Below, one piece after another: positions 38,860 through 45,848 of a stretch of 64,000 bases of DNA. Position 1 is the first letter of the stretch, and each line of letters starts with the position of its first letter. A model generated the notes under the pieces. It did not search any database and was not told the origin of the DNA. It saw only the letters and a program-made list of their open reading frames with translations. Source of the DNA: an archaeon (GTDB lineage Archaea > SpSt-1190 > DYHY01); the NCBI GenBank assembly GCA_043803745.1, contig JAZDJS010000048.1, forward strand, positions 1 to 64,000, read 5' to 3'. Position numbers and translations under genes: made by a program.

Positions 38860-40215
38860 GTGGTGGTTCAGTTCATCGGGGAGCTGGGGCTTTCCGGAAC
38901 TGAGCGGATAGAAGATGAGGCTGGGGCAAAGGAGCTCCTGGAAAAATATTACGGAGAACTCGAGATTGGGACGGAGTCTCCGGGACGCGAGGCGGTCAAG
39001 ACAATGGCTCTCCTGCAGTGGGGAGCGACCGCTGCGCCTGAGGAGGCCCGGAAGATTGCGGATTGGACTGATCCAACGAGGACCGTCAGGACGGGGAACG
39101 TCGGAGTGCAGGGGCTCCTTAGGAAAGGGGATCTGACAACTTCTGCGTCCTTTGCAATGGCTGAATGGGGACCGGTCGACACTCCCGCTGGATATTCCCC
39201 GCTGAGGATAATTAAGGGTGAGCTGGAAGGGGAATTCCTTCCTTTGGGAATAATCGGGCCGGACGGAAAGGGGCTGGGAGAATTTCTTGCAAGGAGGGCG
39301 CGCAGTTGGTATGAAAAAAAGCTCCCCTCGGGAGGCTTGCTGACTGCAGCCTTCCTGGAGGAGGGGGCTTTCTCGGAAGATGGCCTTTCCGGGAACTTGA
39401 TGGCAGGACTTCCATATGCCTGTTCAGTTCAAGCCCAGGGCGGTTGTGTTTTCTGCCCCTTTGGGAAAGGGGAGACTGGAATACCGACAGCGGAGGATTT
39501 CGGCTTTGCAGCAGTTGAGGCGGTCGGGAGGAACGGCGGAAGGACGACAATTACAATAACCGCAGGGAACACTGGCAGGCCGGAGCGGGGACTGGAACGG
39601 TATTTGCCGGTTCTTTCGGAAATACGAGAGAGGCTAATTGAGGCGGGACTGAAACCGCCCCCAATACAGCTTGAAGTCTCTCCGCCCAATTGGGAAGTGC
39701 TTGGCTATCTGGGAGTTGAGGAGCTTTTCGGGAAGCTCATTGAGCTCGGCGTCACATCGCTTATGCTCAATCCCGAGATTCCCATAACGCCTGAAAACGC
39801 AAGGGAGCGGGAAGTTCGCCTAAAGTCAAAAGGCAGCATTCCGGAATCGGATTACCTCCGATCCTGGGAGCTTGCAAAGAAAATGGATCTTGGAACGGCA
39901 GGCGTCCTAATCTGGGGCCTCGGAGGAGAGGCTGCGGATTATCGGGATTTCTCCGCCCTTGAAGCATACAAATCGGGCGTTGATAAAATGGCATCAGTCG
40001 GAGCATATCCAGTCTCCCTCGCACTGAGGCCGCGGGGGGCGTTGATGGGAAAATACGCACCGCCTCCGTTGAAGGGGCAAGTCGAGCTTGTCATTTATTC
40101 GGCGAATGTGTGTGCTAAAGCGGGAATTTCCCCCCCTCCGGGCTGTTCAAAATGTTCGGCCTGCGGGCCTGACGGGGTTGCATACGACCTTGCCTTGAAG
40201 GGGGAATTGAAATGA
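38860..40215 (+). CDS. radical SAM protein (Cx7Cx2C; MSMEG_0568-like)
   Basis: CSVQAQGGCVFC, TITAGN, LIWGLG, LRP..G, C-terminal GCSKCSAC. Confidence 0.75.
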   Translation: MVVQFIGELGLSGTERIEDEAGAKELLEKYYGELEIGTESPGREAVKTMALLQWGATAAPEEARKIADWTDPTRTVRTGNVGVQGLLRKGDLTTSASFAMAEWGPVDTPAGYSPLRIIKGELEGEFLPLGIIGPDGKGLGEFLARRARSWYEKKLPSGGLLTAAFLEEGAFSEDGLSGNLMAGLPYACSVQAQGGCVFCPFGKGETGIPTAEDFGFAAVEAVGRNGGRTTITITAGNTGRPERGLERYLPVLSEIRERLIEAGLKPPPIQLEVSPPNWEVLGYLGVEELFGKLIELGVTSLMLNPEIPITPENAREREVRLKSKGSIPESDYLRSWELAKKMDLGTAGVLIWGLGGEAADYRDFSALEAYKSGVDKMASVGAYPVSLALRPRGALMGKYAPPPLKGQVELVIYSANVCAKAGISPPPGCSKCSACGPDGVAYDLALKGELK

Positions 40216-40595
40216 AGGGAGCCGTTCCGAAAAAGCTCGGACCGTATTCCCTGGGGGCCTCTGCCAGAGGCCTCTCTCTCTTTTTTTCCTCCGGGGAGAC
40301 CGGAACTGACCCGAAAACAGGGAAGCTTGAGAAAGGGATTGCAGCGCAGGCTAGACGGACTCTTGAGAATATCGAGGCAATTCTCTTGCAAAAAGGGCTC
40401 TCCCGCAGGAACGTCGTGAAGGCAACTGTCTACCTGACCGATCTCCGGAATTTCGCGGAATTCAACGGAGTATACCGCAGGTTCTTCGGGGAATCTCTCC
40501 CGGCGCGGACGTGTGTCGGGGTGAGCGAACTTGTCGGCGGGGCTTTCGTAGAGGTAGAAGTTGTCGCGTCAAGGAAGGTTGGAAGATGGGATTAA
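40212..40595 (+). CDS. ridA: RidA/YjgF family enamine deaminase
   Basis: GPYS, SG, Q...TLENI.AIL, VVKATVYL, F..FN.VY, PARTCV, VEVE. Confidence 0.92.
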   Translation: MKGAVPKKLGPYSLGASARGLSLFFSSGETGTDPKTGKLEKGIAAQARRTLENIEAILLQKGLSRRNVVKATVYLTDLRNFAEFNGVYRRFFGESLPARTCVGVSELVGGAFVEVEVVASRKVGRWD

Positions 40596-41602
40596 TTGAC
40601 CTGAGATATGGCACTAATCCAATTCCCCTTGACAATGCGGCAATTGCAAGTATTGCTGCAGAAGCGGTGCGGAAACTGAACGAATATCCCGACCAAAGCT
40701 GCACGAAAATCAAGCGGGCAATTGCGAAAAGCCTCGGCAGGGGTTTTTCTTCCGGCAACGTCCTGGTTGGGAATGGGTTGGACTCGGTGATAAACACTAT
40801 TGCCGAGTCGGTCCTCGGAGGTAGGAAGGGAAACGGCGCGGTAGCGGTGCCGTCGTTCTACGTTTTCTCGGCGGCAATGAGGAAGCTGGGGGCGCGGGTG
40901 CTGGAGTTCCCGCTTTCGGAGGGGACTTTCTCTTTGGATGTCCGTAAGTTCTCCGATGAGATGAAGCAGCGCGGCACAGACCTTTGCTTCCTCGCCAACC
41001 CCAACAATCCGACGGGGAACCTCCTGATACAAGACAAGAGCGGCTTGCTGAAACTGGCCGGCTCCTGCAAGCTCTTGATTGTCGACGAGTGCTATTACGG
41101 CTTCTGCAAGCAGACATTTGTCAGGGAGACGCTCGAGCTCGAAAATCTCGTCGTCCTAAGGAGCCTCTCGAAATCGTACGGCCTGGCAGGCCTGCGCCTC
41201 GGATACGCAGTCTCTCGGAAGGAGAACATAGAACGCCTTGGCAGGGTCGCCTCCGCCTGCAGGCCGTTCGACGCCGGAACAATTTCCCAGGAAATTGGCA
41301 CGTGGGCAGTGGGAAGGAAGAACCGTCTCGCGGAGTTCGCGCAACTGAAAGACGATTTCCTCCGGCTGCTCAGGGATTCCTGCGGAGCAGAGGTCAGTGG
41401 CACAGAGACCTCCTTCCTTCTTCTGAAGGTCGCAGACTCGGAGGAATTCGGTAAGAGACTGGCTTTGGAAGGGGTCCTTGTCAACACCCTCGCACCCTAC
41501 AAGATGGGCGAGAGATATGTGCGGATAGGGATACCTCCTCGCAGACTTTTCGCAAAGGTCGCAAAGGCTGTAGTACGGGCGACAAACAATAATAAAGGGT
41601 GA
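40586..41602 (+). CDS. histidinol-phosphate aminotransferase-like PLP enzyme (HisC/CobD family)
   Basis: NP...YPD, GNG.D, ANPNNPTG, VDECY, LRSLSKSYGLAGLRLGY. Confidence 0.85.
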   Translation: MGLIDLRYGTNPIPLDNAAIASIAAEAVRKLNEYPDQSCTKIKRAIAKSLGRGFSSGNVLVGNGLDSVINTIAESVLGGRKGNGAVAVPSFYVFSAAMRKLGARVLEFPLSEGTFSLDVRKFSDEMKQRGTDLCFLANPNNPTGNLLIQDKSGLLKLAGSCKLLIVDECYYGFCKQTFVRETLELENLVVLRSLSKSYGLAGLRLGYAVSRKENIERLGRVASACRPFDAGTISQEIGTWAVGRKNRLAEFAQLKDDFLRLLRDSCGAEVSGTETSFLLLKVADSEEFGKRLALEGVLVNTLAPYKMGERYVRIGIPPRRLFAKVAKAVVRATNNNKG

Positions 41603-41621
41603 GGAAAAAGTGAACAGAAAA

Positions 41622-43412
41622 ATGGCGAACGATTCATTCCAGCCCCCGAGGGGGACGCGCGACCTCCTCCCGAAGGAGCTTTCGGTGAGGAACAGGATTT
41701 GCGAAATACTTTCCGGGACTGCCGAAACGTACGGCTTTGGGCCGATAGACACCCCGGTTTTCGAGAATTTCGACTTCCTTGCGAAAAAGTCCGGGCCCGA
41801 GGTGAAGGAGCAGATATACTATTTCAAGGACAAGGCGGGGCGCGAGCTCGGGCTCAGGTTTGATTTCACCGTCCCCATTGCAAGGCTTGTCATGAACAAC
41901 CCCCAGCTGCCGAAACCTCTCCGGCTTTACGTCCTTGACAAGGCATGGAGATATGAGGAAATCTCGGCAGGCAGGTTCAGGGAGTTCTCCCAGTTGGACG
42001 TCGAGATACTCGGCTCGAAAGAGCTTATTGTCGATGCCGAGACAATCGCCGTCGGCGTCGCCCTCCTGACCGTTTTCGGGATCCCGAAAATAAAGGTGAA
42101 GATAAACAACAGGGAAATCCTTGACGGCTTTGCCAAAAGCATCGGGATTTCCGAGGGCTCTGCTCGGGACGATTTCTTCAGGACAATTGACAAAAGGGAG
42201 AAGCTTTCCGAATCGGCGTTCCGGGAGGCGCTCGGGAAGCTGGGGCTTTCCGAGGAAACCGCAGGGCAGGTTTCGGAATATTGCGGCCTTTCCGGAGAGG
42301 CCGGGGATGTGATCAAGCGGGCTGAAAAGCTGCTCAACCAGAATTCCTTGATTTCCGGCGGGATCGAGAAGCTGAAGAAACTTTTCAGCCTCCTCAAGAA
42401 TTACGGGGTTGAGAAATACTGCGAGCTTGACCTCTCGATTGCAAGGGGGCTGGATTATTACACTGGCATCATCTTCGAGGTCAAGGCGGGGAACTACGGG
42501 CTTTCGATTATCGGCGGCGGCAGATATGACAAGCTCATCGGGCTTTACTCGGGAGAGGAAATGCCTGCGACCGGCTTTGCAATGGGCATTGACCGGCTTT
42601 ACGAGCTTCTTGGGAAGGAAGGGCGGCTGCCGGCATCGGGCTCGGGAAGCAAGGCGCTCGTGGTTCCGATCGGGGAACCCGCGCTTCCAAAGGCAATCGA
42701 GCTTGTCCAGGGAATCAGGCTTGCCGGGGTCAACTCGGAAATAGACGTCATGGGGCGGAGCGTTGGGAAGAACCTCGAGTTCGCCGACAAGGCGAAGATG
42801 CCTTTTGCGGTAATCGTCGGGGAGAAGGAGCTTTCGGCGCGCAAGGCAACGGTGAAGGATCTCCGGACCGGGGAAAGCGAGGCTGTGGATTTCGCGCAAG
42901 TCCCTTTCTACATCGCCGGGAAACTGAGCAGGGATTTCGAGGTTCCGGGCAAGTCCGAAGAGAAAACTTCTGCAATCGCGGGTTCGGGGGATTTCAAGGC
43001 GCGCCTCCACACGGCAGACCACATCCTTACGGGCGTTCTTGGTCAGCTTGCAAAGGGCTTCGAGGAACGGGCGCTGGAATTTGCGGAAACCCACTGCAGG
43101 TGGGATTGCGTCTCGGATGACGACTTGAGGAAGCTGAAGGCGGAAATCGAGAAAAGCGTGAACGAGATTATTTCTCGGAATCTGCAGGTTTCGCAAAAGG
43201 AGATTCCGAGGGCCGAAGCTGAGGAAAAATTCGGTAAGCTCAGGGCCCCAAAGGAGCTTGAGGAAATAACCGTCTACGAAATAGCCGGCTTCAACGAGCT
43301 TCCTTGCGGAGGCCCCCACGTCCGAAGCACGGCGCAGGTCGGCAAGTTCAAAATCCTGAAAATTGAGAAGAAAGGGGCGAAAGCCTGGTCGATAAGGTAT
43401 ACTGTTGAATAA
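41622..43412 (+). CDS. hisS: histidine--tRNA ligase fused to a C-terminal AlaX-type editing domain
   Basis: PRGTRD, LRFDFT, WRYE..GRFREF, ARGLDYYTG, GGGRYD, anticodon domain; then HTADH...CGGPHV from about 42990. Confidence 0.93.
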   Translation: MANDSFQPPRGTRDLLPKELSVRNRICEILSGTAETYGFGPIDTPVFENFDFLAKKSGPEVKEQIYYFKDKAGRELGLRFDFTVPIARLVMNNPQLPKPLRLYVLDKAWRYEEISAGRFREFSQLDVEILGSKELIVDAETIAVGVALLTVFGIPKIKVKINNREILDGFAKSIGISEGSARDDFFRTIDKREKLSESAFREALGKLGLSEETAGQVSEYCGLSGEAGDVIKRAEKLLNQNSLISGGIEKLKKLFSLLKNYGVEKYCELDLSIARGLDYYTGIIFEVKAGNYGLSIIGGGRYDKLIGLYSGEEMPATGFAMGIDRLYELLGKEGRLPASGSGSKALVVPIGEPALPKAIELVQGIRLAGVNSEIDVMGRSVGKNLEFADKAKMPFAVIVGEKELSARKATVKDLRTGESEAVDFAQVPFYIAGKLSRDFEVPGKSEEKTSAIAGSGDFKARLHTADHILTGVLGQLAKGFEERALEFAETHCRWDCVSDDDLRKLKAEIEKSVNEIISRNLQVSQKEIPRAEAEEKFGKLRAPKELEEITVYEIAGFNELPCGGPHVRSTAQVGKFKILKIEKKGAKAWSIRYTVE

Positions 43413-43455
43413 CTGCAACAAAAAGAATAAAAGCAAGCGCCGTCTGCCCTGGGCG

Positions 43456-44235
43456 ATGGAACTTGTCAAGCTATTCCGGAACATAAAGGAGAATTTCTTT
43501 TTCTCGGCGGTTTTCCTTGCAACCCTCGTCGGGGGCATCCTTGCAATGATCTACAAGCCGCTCCTTCCCGAAGTCGAAATCCTGAAGGGCACGTTCTGGC
43601 TTTTCGGCCTTTCCCTCCAGGCAACGGTGATAATCTTGTGGATAGGGGGCTACCTGCTCTACAGATGGAACCTCGGGAAAAGAAAGAACAGCACCCAGCT
43701 TGTCTGGGGGGTTTCATTCCTGCTCTACTCAGTTGTCTTCATTGGGATGGCCCTGCAGGCCCTTGGATTTGGGTTCGCTGACGCCAAACTCCCCTGGATT
43801 TTCTTCGTTTACAGGCAGTTCATGATCTTGTGGCTTGCCGGAATTTATTGGGGGCTTGCCGGAATTGTTTTCGCAAAGGAGAACAGACTTGCCCGGATTC
43901 TGCCGACGGCGGCAATACTCCTCATTGGCTATGGGATTTTCGCAAACGGGCTCTTCATTGTCAAGGATGTGGAGTACACGATGTACAGCTTCCTTTACCT
44001 GCTGTTCGTTCCGGTGTGCTTCATCCTTTCCCGGATTTTCTGGAAATATGCCCAGCTTGCCTCGGCAACCTTCGCAAGATACCTTTCAATCGGCTTTGCG
44101 GGCATCGGCATAACATATCTTGCATGGGCGCCCTGGCACAAGACAACCTTCTATTTCGTCTGGTTTTTCCTGTATGTCCTTTCGCTGATTCCGCTTCTTG
44201 TCGGCTTCCTTGGCGCGGGGCAGAAGAGCACTTAG
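43456..44235 (+). CDS. multi-pass (7-8 TM) membrane protein
   Basis: Hydrophobic helices throughout; ATG at 43456. Confidence 0.75.
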   Translation: MELVKLFRNIKENFFFSAVFLATLVGGILAMIYKPLLPEVEILKGTFWLFGLSLQATVIILWIGGYLLYRWNLGKRKNSTQLVWGVSFLLYSVVFIGMALQALGFGFADAKLPWIFFVYRQFMILWLAGIYWGLAGIVFAKENRLARILPTAAILLIGYGIFANGLFIVKDVEYTMYSFLYLLFVPVCFILSRIFWKYAQLASATFARYLSIGFAGIGITYLAWAPWHKTTFYFVWFFLYVLSLIPLLVGFLGAGQKST

Positions 44236-44247
44236 GGGGGTTTCAGA

Positions 44248-44577
44248 GTGGGTTCCGTCGAAAATAAAATCGCTTATGAGCTGATTGAGAAAGCGAAATC
44301 GACGATAGGCGGGACTGCGCTGACAATTGCCGAATCGGAAGGCCTGAAGATATCTAAGGGTTCCGTTGAAACCGAACGGACCGGATACCTGGAAAAGCTT
44401 GTGGAAGCTTTCAAGAGGATAATAGGTCCTGTTGCGAAAAATTTTGCAATCCAGGGGGCGCAGGCAGCCCTGGCCGGATTTGAAAAGCCCGAGATTGACC
44501 GGGAACTCCCGAACCTTCCGGAGTGGGCAAGGCCGTCTGTTGCAGCCAAGCTTTCCGGGTTTTTCGGAGAGTTCTGA
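44248..44577 (+). CDS. small helical hypothetical protein
   Basis: Internal pseudo-repeat IG..A (STIGGTA / RIIGPVA). Confidence 0.65.
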   Translation: MGSVENKIAYELIEKAKSTIGGTALTIAESEGLKISKGSVETERTGYLEKLVEAFKRIIGPVAKNFAIQGAQAALAGFEKPEIDRELPNLPEWARPSVAAKLSGFFGEF

Positions 44578-44639: not shown

Positions 44640-45848
44640 ATGGAAAGCAAGAAGCTGCGGGAGAAGGTTCTCGTATCCCTGAACATCTTCCTCCAGCTCT
44701 TGGGGCATTCCCTTTACGGGGTTTTCATCCCGATTTTCCTTCTGAAGGAGGGCGCAACCCTTCCGGAGGTTTTCATTTACGGGGCAATGGACGGTCTCGG
44801 AACCCTCGGGGGGGCTCTTGTCGGCCCGGCGGCAGTCAAAAAGTTCGGGGTGAAATTCCCGCTCGTTTTCAGGGCGCTCTTCCAACCGCTCTGGGTTGTC
44901 GGGCTTTTGAACCATGGAAAGCTTCCTTTCCCTCTTCCGGCATATGGGTTCGTTTTCGGGGCGTTCACTTCAGTCTACTGGCTTGCGATAAACGCATACA
45001 CGATTGAGGCAAGCAGCAAGAAGGAAAGGGGCCTCTTCTCGGGAATTTCCTCCGCAATGGTCTGGATTGCATCCATAATAGCGCCGCTGATAGGCGCGTT
45101 CATAATCGGGAAGTTCGGATATTCGGCCGTCTTCAGCCTGGCAATTGCGGTAATTCTCCTCGCGCTTGTCCCCGCCCTTCTTCTCCCGAGGCTGCGGCTT
45201 CTGGACGGGGCGCAAACCCGGACGATTCCGAAGAAGGGCGGCGGAACTGGGCGGCGGAACGAGATCCTCGGGGCATTTCTCCTTATGTATGCGATACTCG
45301 GCGTCGGCGGACTTGCGACATATTACGCATGGCCGCTTTATCTTTACTCGGTCTTCGGGGGGGAACTCCAGATAGGCCTCCTTGCATCGCTAGGTTCCTT
45401 CTTCGGCCTTGCTGGCGCGCTCTTCGGGGGCTGGTTCGCCGACAAGATGAGCAAGACCCGGCTTGTCGCAGCGTCTGGCAGCGTCCTCTTCTTCAGCTGG
45501 GTTCTCTCGGCAGCGTTCACAAGCGCGCTGGCGCTCTCGATTGTCGTTTCTTTCCGGAGATTCGCTGACGAAGTCACCGGAAACGCGCTTTTCGCCAAGT
45601 TCGGGAACCTTTTCGCGCGGGACAACCTGATCATCCGGATAGCCCAGAAACATTTCGCTCTCGGAGCGGGCCTTGCTCTTGCGGGCGCTTTGGCCTGCTT
45701 CGTCTCAATCAGGACTTTTTTCGTTCTTGTCGGAATCCTCTTCCTCGTCTATGCCGCAGCAATCTCGGGCACGGTCTTCCGGACGGGGAGAAAGCTCGCG
45801 CTCCCCAGGGGAATGCTGATTTTCCTTGAGCGATTTTACCAGAACTAG
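44640..45848 (+). CDS. MFS transporter
   Basis: 12 TMs, G...KKFG and GWFADKMSK motif A, ERG...G. Confidence 0.9.
   Translation: MESKKLREKVLVSLNIFLQLLGHSLYGVFIPIFLLKEGATLPEVFIYGAMDGLGTLGGALVGPAAVKKFGVKFPLVFRALFQPLWVVGLLNHGKLPFPLPAYGFVFGAFTSVYWLAINAYTIEASSKKERGLFSGISSAMVWIASIIAPLIGAFIIGKFGYSAVFSLAIAVILLALVPALLLPRLRLLDGAQTRTIPKKGGGTGRRNEILGAFLLMYAILGVGGLATYYAWPLYLYSVFGGELQIGLLASLGSFFGLAGALFGGWFADKMSKTRLVAASGSVLFFSWVLSAAFTSALALSIVVSFRRFADEVTGNALFAKFGNLFARDNLIIRIAQKHFALGAGLALAGALACFVSIRTFFVLVGILFLVYAAAISGTVFRTGRKLALPRGMLIFLERFYQN

Follow-up and report, generated by a model that had tools for sequence, protein, structure and literature searches.

Three described systems lie closest to the locus analysed here. 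The first comprises the cis-editing domains of AlaRS, placed C-terminal to the catalytic part, and of ThrRS (domain N2), which provide a tethered hydrolytic site for Ser-tRNA; they are both ancient and universal and correspond to a known misactivation of Ser or Gly. The second is AlaX-S (type I AlaXp), the minimal free-standing version of the same fold, represented by PH0574 of P. horikoshii (PDB 1V4P, 1WXO, 1V7O, 1WNU); according to a review, the hydrolytic activity of AlaXp-S covers Ser-tRNA(Ala) alone, to the exclusion of Gly-tRNA(Ala), and the protein has no tRNA specificity (PMC11295145, citing Novoa et al. 2015). The third is the AlaX-like domain (AXD) of the apicomplexan cytosolic TrpRS, described for Plasmodium falciparum (Pf-WRS), an AlaX-S-like module attached through a linker to a synthetase other than AlaRS and ThrRS; it is needed for tRNA binding and aminoacylation and has been interpreted as a tRNA-binding aid (PMC3680381). 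Here we examine a stretch of 64,000 nucleotides (hereafter, the window), positions 1 to 64,000 of contig JAZDJS010000048.1 in the archaeal assembly GCA_043803745.1 (lineage SpSt-1190; DYHY01), in which a hisS gene continues in frame into a domain of the AlaX-S type. To our knowledge, the set of proofreading synthetases has long been held settled, with HisRS outside it. A preliminary description made from the sequence alone was aware of no described HisRS-AlaX fusion; likewise, we found none in the literature searched, and in the domain table of AARS Online (PMC11580382) the AlaRS/ThrRS-type editing domain is entered for AlaRS and ThrRS only.

The fused gene (41610..43412, plus strand) is a single open reading frame (ORF) of 600 amino acids (aa) plus stop that begins with GTG and contains no internal stop codon and no frameshift in the sequence of this one assembly; the database copy of the protein begins at Met5 and is 596 aa long. 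The HisRS class II catalytic core occupies residues 15-330 (41652..42599, plus strand; Pfam PF13393, tRNA-synt_His, 187.7 bits) and includes the RGLDYYTG and GGGRYD motifs, with R279, G280, Y283, Y284, T285, G304 and R305 invariant among 46 aligned HisRS. Downstream lie the HGTP_anticodon anticodon-binding domain, residues 348-435 (42651..42914, plus strand; PF03129, 55 bits), a linker, residues 436-460 (42915..42989, plus strand), that matches the short C-terminal tail of the unfused HisRS of a same-genus genome (G001), and the AlaX-S-type domain with the tRNA_SAD fold, residues 461-600 (42990..43409, plus strand). The protein as a whole scores 383.7 bits against the curated hisS equivalog model TIGR00442 (NCBIfam), well above the cut-off of 286.75, whereas the score for HisZ, the regulatory HisRS paralogue (TIGR00443), is 236.5 bits against a cut-off of 271.65; the presence of the anticodon domain and the lack of a detectable HisG in the genome further led us to reject a HisZ assignment. 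The tRNA_SAD family PF07973 is recognized at residues 553-590 with 41.2 bits (cut-off 24), and residues 465-599 match positions 96-233 of the 234-position NCBIfam AlaXM model with 78 bits (E 8e-22), a partial match below that model's whole-protein cut-off of 300. Reading of the DNA revealed no in-frame ATG, GTG or TTG from the linker through to the HTADH motif, so that the AlaX domain would be made only as part of the HisRS fusion. With the single frame, the Pfam and NCBIfam domains and the modelled fold in agreement, the in-frame fusion proposed in the preliminary description is confirmed as a genuine architecture, in one assembly. The length of the appended domain had also been given correctly, as about 140 aa; the linker is present as proposed, but at about 25-29 aa it is slightly longer than the 20 or so estimated, counted from the last residue of the anticodon domain (435) to the start of the AlaX-type domain (about 461-465).

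The fold predicted for the appended domain is that of the AlaRS-type editors. An AlphaFold2 model of residues 461-600, built on a 35-row alignment, reached a mean predicted local distance difference test score (pLDDT) of 97.5 and a predicted template modelling score (pTM) of 0.90. Foldseek comparison of this model yielded E values of 4e-12 to 3e-11 to AlaRS editing domains and AlaX-S, with ThrRS N2 domains next; normalized by query or target length, the template modelling scores (TMq and TMt) were TMq 0.86 for the AlaRS editing domain 2zze (root mean square deviation, rmsd, 1.9 A) and TMq 0.84 and TMt 0.78 for AlaX-S (1wnu/1v4p; rmsd 2.5 A), the TMt on AlaX-M being 0.50-0.52. The similarity of the modelled fold to AlaX-S and AlaRS editing domains is far beyond chance. 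Like PH0574, a minimal fold of about 140-155 aa, the window domain consists of the editing core alone, with neither the N-terminal barrel of AlaX-M/L nor a C-terminal DHHA1/C-Ala part, and the HxxxH and CxxxH motifs occupy the same places in both. It differs from PH0574 in being in frame with HisRS rather than free-standing, in having Tyr instead of Val before the Cys loop, and in its sequence (23-25% identity). Furthermore, it falls in a separate clade of DPANN archaea and bacteria of the candidate phyla radiation (CPR), and its deacylase activity is predicted.

Both signature motifs of this fold, as defined by Gogoi et al. (PMC12003907; the corresponding InterPro entry, IPR018163, is named in PMC13149037), are complete, as the preliminary description had stated: HTADH (H467-H471; 43008..43022, plus strand) and CGGPH (C566-H570; 43305..43319, plus strand) align with the HxxxH and CGGTH motifs of the P. 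horikoshii AlaRS editing domain (2zze), so that the first and second His, the Cys, the Gly and the final His are all present. By contrast, all four motif residues of the Pf-WRS domain are replaced, by Asp, Ser, Asn and Val (PMC3680381). Across an alignment of 19 members of the clade delineated below, the Cys and His of CxxxH are found in 19/19 sequences and the second His of HxxxH in 17/19 (N in P0138 and R in P0143; these handles are our own). At the first His position, ten of these sequences have H, six Q, two E and one N, and eleven retain the central Gly of CxGxH. Another feature of the window domain is Tyr556, in ITVYEIAG (43275..43277, plus strand), a position which in AlaRS-type domains holds an aliphatic V/I/L/T residue; the equivalence of the positions comes from sequence alignment only. 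All eight members of the subclade of the window domain have this Tyr, and the remaining members of the clade have Val. In sequence alignments, Tyr556 is paired with the Tyr of the ThrRS editing domain encoded in the same genome (ITFYEIGD) and with Val in P. horikoshii AlaX-S. Overall, the window domain and the N2 domain of this resident ThrRS are 38% identical over 90 residues, with the Tyr and an EITxYEI...CxGPHVxST stretch in common. In ThrRS editing domains, an invariant shell Tyr (Tyr173 in E. coli ThrRS) blocks the holding of Zn and leaves the site sensitive to oxidants, the AlaRS-type domains having V/I/L/T instead, and AlaRS-type editing does not require Zn (Gogoi et al. 2025, PMC12003907). 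With Tyr556 at the shell position, Zn occupancy of the window domain cannot be assumed; the full Zn site announced in the preliminary description therefore stands as regards the motifs and not as regards the metal. The counterpart of Thr30 of AlaX-S, a residue which we take to have a role in this family, could not be placed, lying in a variable stretch where the alignment is ambiguous. A complex prediction with two copies of HisRS residues 9-436 and the AlaX domain scored 0.00 against a mark of 0.32, which is evidence neither way.

To place the domain, we scanned 1.84 billion representative proteins in full and obtained 1,209 matches at E <=1e-3. After the protein of the window itself, four of the next five matches are free proteins of 138-145 aa and the fifth, P0142, is fused to HisRS; identities among these top matches range from 36 to 44%, with E values of 1e-26 to 2e-18. 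Additional free copies came from genome and metagenome scans, in Micrarchaeota (49% identity), Peregrinibacteria (45%), Magasanikiibacteriota and a Bathyarchaeia assembly. A quick tree was made from 68 rows, selected from 307 profile hits by coverage of at least 115 model positions and a score of at least 100 bits and supplemented with the resident paralogues, the loci discussed below, fusions to other enzymes and a few AlaRS. In this tree, the small free proteins and all HisRS-fused domains form one clade, with 89 support in the Shimodaira-Hasegawa-like approximate likelihood ratio test (SH-aLRT), P0186 and P0218 lying outside it without resolved placement and the Thermococcales-type AlaX-S (G022) branching outside on a long branch. 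A careful tree of 32 rows (25 ingroup and 7 outgroup), from which duplicates (P0409, L032, L036-L040, L044), fragments, L042 and the later-fetched L047-L050 were left out, supported the split of ingroup and outgroup at 99/98 and a ten-row subclade with the window domain at 99/96. Judging from these sequence comparisons, the window domain belongs to a clade of free proteins of 138-157 aa from DPANN archaea and CPR bacteria, for which we use the name mini-AlaX. One free member, P0138 (L035:833-1273), carries a run of about nine isoleucines in the strand after CGGPH that is absent from all its relatives.

Small editing-fold domains are also fused to enzymes other than HisRS, namely alcohol dehydrogenase (ADH), alpha-amylase, GNAT, deaminase and sulfatase-like enzymes, but these form a separate clade in the quick tree (SH-aLRT 99). 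Among the matches listed, this sister clade includes P0287-P0290, P0298, P0305-P0308, P0317, P0319, P0322 and P0327; the partners (alcohol dehydrogenase, alpha-amylase, GNAT acetyltransferase, a cytidine-deaminase-like and a sulfatase/metalloenzyme-like protein) include none with an obvious tie to tRNA, and the alpha-amylase fusions fall into clusters with 502, 620 and 1,591 members.

Within the mini-AlaX clade, six further HisRS fusions were identified: P0021 (587 aa), P0142 (608 aa), L033 (586 aa), L043 (572 aa), L047 (a 598-aa frame) and the partial P0155 (227 aa, truncated by the end of a contig in a Woesearchaeota record). The partners and the clade are the same as in the window and the order is opposite, with the mini-AlaX domain N-terminal in all six; the C-terminal order is confined to the window among the seven fusions examined. 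These counts come from loci and genome searches, since a profile search for longer proteins missed P0021 and P0142 and was unfit for counting. In the careful tree, each of the domains of P0142, P0155 and L043 has a non-fused protein as its sister (bootstrap support 99-100%), and an approximately unbiased (AU) test rejected the grouping of six fused rows in one clade (delta lnL 189, p 1.7e-5). The synthetase parts give a similarly scattered picture: in the HisRS tree, the window enzyme is sister to the unfused P0019 (SH-aLRT 100) and the HisRS of L033 is sister to that of L035, and the HisRS part of P0021 is 83% identical to the unfused P0044. Judged by these trees, at least five separate fusion events have joined the clade to HisRS, at one end or the other, and the window fusion arose separately from that of its nearest fused relative, L033, in which the domain is attached at the other end.

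Two unfused members of the clade are linked to hisS in the genome. On the metagenome contig L034, the stop codon of a synthetase overlaps the ATG of a mini-alaX gene by four bases, in the gene order of the window; the 3' end of this synthetase, which is of class IIa, carries GGRYD together with an HGTP anticodon domain and is matched by residues 299-417 of the window HisRS in a tblastn search. On the metagenome contig L035, the order is hisF fragment/hisIE, mini-alaX (P0138), hisD (531 bits) and hisS. Altogether, hisS is fused to the mini-alaX gene or located nearby in 4 of 14 metagenome loci (the synthetase in L045 is ThrRS), with about 10 distinct genes left after removal of duplicates. The clade-specific, repeated association of mini-AlaX with hisS is firmly established. 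More broadly, a 2026 study found AlaX-family genes co-located with biosynthesis genes for cysteine (1,562), histidine (65) and threonine (42) (PMC13149037).

The hisS of L035 contains a TAA (L035:3053-3055) at the Gln of REFWQCD, which is invariant in the 46 aligned HisRS; it could reflect a mutation of CAA to TAA, an error in the sequence or recoding of the stop, and the neighbouring genes have no internal stops. The single TAA initially counted inside the hisS of G041 is just the terminal stop codon.

Comparison with relatives shows that the fusion is a recent, lineage-restricted addition to the HisRS of this organism. The hisS of the same-genus genome G001 encodes 456 aa, is 69% identical to the window HisRS and ends about 17 residues after a common GKL, with a major facilitator superfamily (MFS) transporter gene directly downstream of it. 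The orthologous MFS gene of the window (44640-45848) is separated from the HisRS-coding part by about 1.7 kb of extra DNA that consists of the AlaX domain and two ORFs, of 276 and 109 aa; both flanks of the fused gene are syntenic with those of relatives. The GC content at third codon positions (GC3) is 0.66 in the AlaX domain, 0.55-0.68 in the extra 1.7 kb and 0.65-0.73 in the neighbouring genes. A mobile-element signature around the insert was considered and rejected: we found no direct repeats bracketing the extra 1.7 kb, and its composition is near that of the neighbours. In a same-family relative (L010, G003:C21:1599-2908), hisS is apparently split, with residues 5-347 and 337-440 in separate frames, which suggests a frameshift or an assembly error.

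The HisRS-AlaX fusion is rare (1/17 and 1/401 genomes) and not a common architecture. All 17 species genomes covered for the window's phylum contain HisRS, and a match across residues 1-600 was obtained in the host genome (G000) only. Long open frames at the hisS loci of G016 (587 aa), G005 (510 aa) and G020 (496 aa; its phylum is represented by one genome in the sample) turned out to be ordinary hisS genes with open upstream frames. The sample of 401 genomes comes from the phylum of G043, labelled Nanoarchaeota, which holds locus L030; it contains four clade-level copies (164-175 bits), one of them fused, and the other 136 matching genomes score at most 133 bits, mostly with frames of AlaX-M size and some of about 575-840 aa. 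Among the best 120 HisRS homologues listed, PF07973 is found only in the window protein and in P0021.

The host genome (1.23 Mb in 51 contigs, 90% complete; the window is contig C48) contains the fused gene as its sole HisRS core, and a clade-profile search found no free mini-AlaX elsewhere in it. Its single tRNA-His(GUG) has an encoded G-1, C73 and CCA. We considered and dismissed odd identity elements in tRNA(His): G-1 is present and G3:U70 is not, tRNA-Ala having the usual G3:U70. In total, seven frames with the AlaRS/ThrRS editing fold are encoded (L001-L007; on contigs C44, C21, C19, which carries two, C43 and C1, and in the window), an unusually large inventory for a 1.23-Mb genome. The ThrRS is of the bacterial type (648 aa, HSTSH and CRGPH). 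The AlaRS (L003; G000:C19:52653-55796; open frame 635 aa) carries HTATH and CSGPH and ends right after the editing domain, without C-Ala; this short form resembles the AlaRS of about 580-600 aa from CPR bacteria that dominate the domain searches. The four remaining AlaX paralogues include one AlaX-L-like protein of 401 aa and three AlaX-M-like proteins of 231, 232 and 244 aa, the C1 paralogue having DGGCH where the others have CGGTH. The fused domain is not a duplicate of one of these genes, as indicated by its score against the clade profile (161 bits, compared to at most 76 for the resident paralogues) and by its placement in the tree. Nor does it compensate for a loss of editing in AlaRS or ThrRS, a possibility that the preliminary description had proposed to check: both enzymes retain their HxxxH and CxGxH domains, and the four AlaX paralogues exist besides.

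The repeated fusion to HisRS at either end, the adjacency to hisS and the occurrence in a histidine operon led us to read the domain as a proofreading partner of HisRS, a reading to which we assign a probability somewhat short of even, roughly 0.45. Under this scenario, a free-standing mini-alaX gene would have arrived downstream of hisS and would then have merged into the hisS frame through loss of the stop/start junction; the overlap of the hisS stop and the mini-alaX start in L034 shows this unfused state. From the kept fold and motif residues, we infer that the domain has most likely retained the ability to hydrolyse an aminoacyl ester on tRNA. Flexibly tethered beside the synthetic site, it could clear tRNA(His) charged with a wrong amino acid, which, by analogy with AlaX-S and ThrRS editing, would most plausibly be serine or another small hydroxy or non-canonical one. 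Because AlaX-S has no tRNA specificity of its own, the synthetase partner could supply it. The preliminary description had offered two readings, cis-editing of tRNA(His) and a tethered trans-editor of Ser/Gly-tRNA-Ala. Since HisRS is the recurrent partner, we favour a HisRS-coupled role over the tethered tRNA(Ala) editor, and the latter had been formulated too broadly, given that the minimal AlaX-S type hydrolyses Ser-tRNA(Ala) only (PMC11295145).

A number of observations weigh against HisRS-coupled proofreading. We know of no case of mischarging by HisRS, there is no known biochemical need for such proofreading, and no substrate can be named; this differs from the situation of AlaRS and ThrRS with their known misactivation and resembles that of Plasmodium TrpRS, which is not known to mischarge either. 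The tRNA(His) of the host is canonical, six other proteins with the editing fold are already encoded in the genome, and the same-genus relative with the unfused hisS does without the AlaX domain, which makes the domain dispensable on short time scales. The fusion itself rests on one assembly. As for the genomic linkage, hisS was found within about 4 kb in none of the seven genome-contig loci of free clade members and within 1.5 kb in none of the three free copies of the phylum of G043, and in G041 the mini-alaX gene and hisS are about 7 kb apart on opposite strands. The recurrence, too, should be viewed with some caution: P0021 was found via its HisRS part, which biases its ascertainment (searches with the domain yielded the other fusions), and the group submitted to the AU test was named after the quick tree had been seen. 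Finally, the first His is Q, E or N in 9/19 clade members and the central Gly of CxGxH is replaced in 8/19, so that the chemistry may differ from that of canonical AlaX.

Among the rival explanations, the domain could be a generic tethered trans-editor that removes Ser from mischarged tRNAs such as tRNA(Ala) or tRNA(Thr), with HisRS as a mere carrier that ensures co-expression, dimerisation or dosage. Such a role would fit the fold and motifs, which are those of AlaX-S, an editor that hydrolyses Ser-tRNA(Ala) without tRNA specificity (PMC11295145), as well as the scarcity of hisS next to most free members; the related mini-domains joined to ADH, amylase and GNAT indicate that fusions of this kind can be promiscuous. 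We nevertheless consider the generic editor unlikely, although by no means negligible, because HisRS is the partner in seven of the seven fusions within the clade, at both termini and in separate events, two unfused members reside in hisS or his-operon contexts, and chance would not pick the same carrier, out of about a thousand genes, every time. Moreover, with the editing domains of AlaRS and ThrRS and four AlaX paralogues already in place, six resident editing-fold proteins in all, a generic role would be redundant. Alternatively, the domain might be an extra tRNA-binding or stabilising module that improves the binding or aminoacylation of tRNA(His) and edits nothing. The AlaX-like domain of Pf-WRS provides a precedent (PMC3680381), no error of HisRS is known, and the first His has been lost in nine of the 19 clade members and the second in P0138 and P0143. 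Yet Pf-WRS has lost all four motif residues and the window domain keeps all four, the Cys and His of CxxxH being universal in the clade, which points to retained chemistry; in addition, the unfused HisRS of the sister species, with the same core, works without the domain, and we regard the helper role as rather improbable. Pf-WRS also differs in being a eukaryotic class I enzyme with an N-terminal AXD, whereas the window protein and its relatives are class II HisRS of archaea and CPR bacteria.

A different kind of hydrolysis would be that of His-tRNA(His) itself, or of His on a wrong tRNA, tuning the level of charged tRNA(His). A regulatory deacylase of this type would explain the clade member inside the hisIE-alaX-hisD-hisS operon and would agree with the 65 AlaX genes reported near histidine biosynthesis genes (PMC13149037). 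However, hisD, hisA/F and hisG were not found in the 90% complete host genome, which leaves nothing to regulate, it would be costly for the enzyme to hydrolyse its own product futilely, and the AlaX pocket has been described for Ser and Gly; this possibility accordingly strikes us as very improbable. Lower still do we rate an artefact in which separate hisS and mini-alaX genes, with an overlap like that in L034, were joined by an assembly or base-calling error. The fusion is known from a single assembly, the database protein comes from one contig only, and the overlapping two-gene arrangement does exist, but a single indel in the ATGA overlap would not yield a 25-aa in-frame linker lacking a start codon for the domain. 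The syntenic flanks and the GC3 of the domain, close to that of its neighbours, are likewise at odds with a faulty join, and six independent fused genes in other assemblies demonstrate that the architecture is viable.

The proposal of HisRS-coupled proofreading can be extended from the window to the whole clade, and in this wider form we find it doubtful: in ultra-small archaea and bacteria, mini-AlaX would serve HisRS as a dedicated proofreading partner, HisRS would make a recurrent error there that was repeatedly solved by attachment of an editor at either end, and the Tyr-type shell in the subclade of the window domain could render this proofreading redox-tunable. If so, the error would be tRNA(His) carrying a small hydroxy or non-canonical amino acid, or would be tied to histidine metabolism. 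The repeated recruitment of a motif-intact editing module suggests a problem of tRNA(His) fidelity or another need for a deacylase, at least in DPANN and CPR. The window protein offers a testable system, with both predicted activities on one polypeptide and the unfused sister enzyme (P0019/G001) as a natural control. Even if the domain proves generic or non-catalytic, the case documents the capture of free trans-editors by synthetases, including an overlapping-gene intermediate; what it brings is the C-terminal form, the overlapping-gene state, the his-operon context and the prevalence figures.

Immediately upstream of hisS (40212-41602) are a gene of the RidA/L-PSP family (100.7 bits) and a class I/II aminotransferase gene (40511..41602, plus strand) resembling hisC and CobD; the best matches of the latter, to hisC (175.7 bits; cut-off 276.55) and CobD (162.2 bits; cut-off 290.55), are both under the respective cut-offs. 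As hisD, hisA/F and hisG were not found in the 90% complete host genome either, we rejected a link to histidine biosynthesis there. The two ORFs between the fusion and the MFS gene (43405..44577, plus strand) encode a multi-pass membrane protein of 276 aa and a protein of 109 aa, neither of which belongs to a Pfam family. The probable start of the membrane protein (43405-44235) is Met18 (window position 43456), as in its Atlas entry, and its model resembles seven-transmembrane sensor modules (TM-scores of 0.6-0.68), the clusters of look-alikes being archaeal hypothetical proteins.

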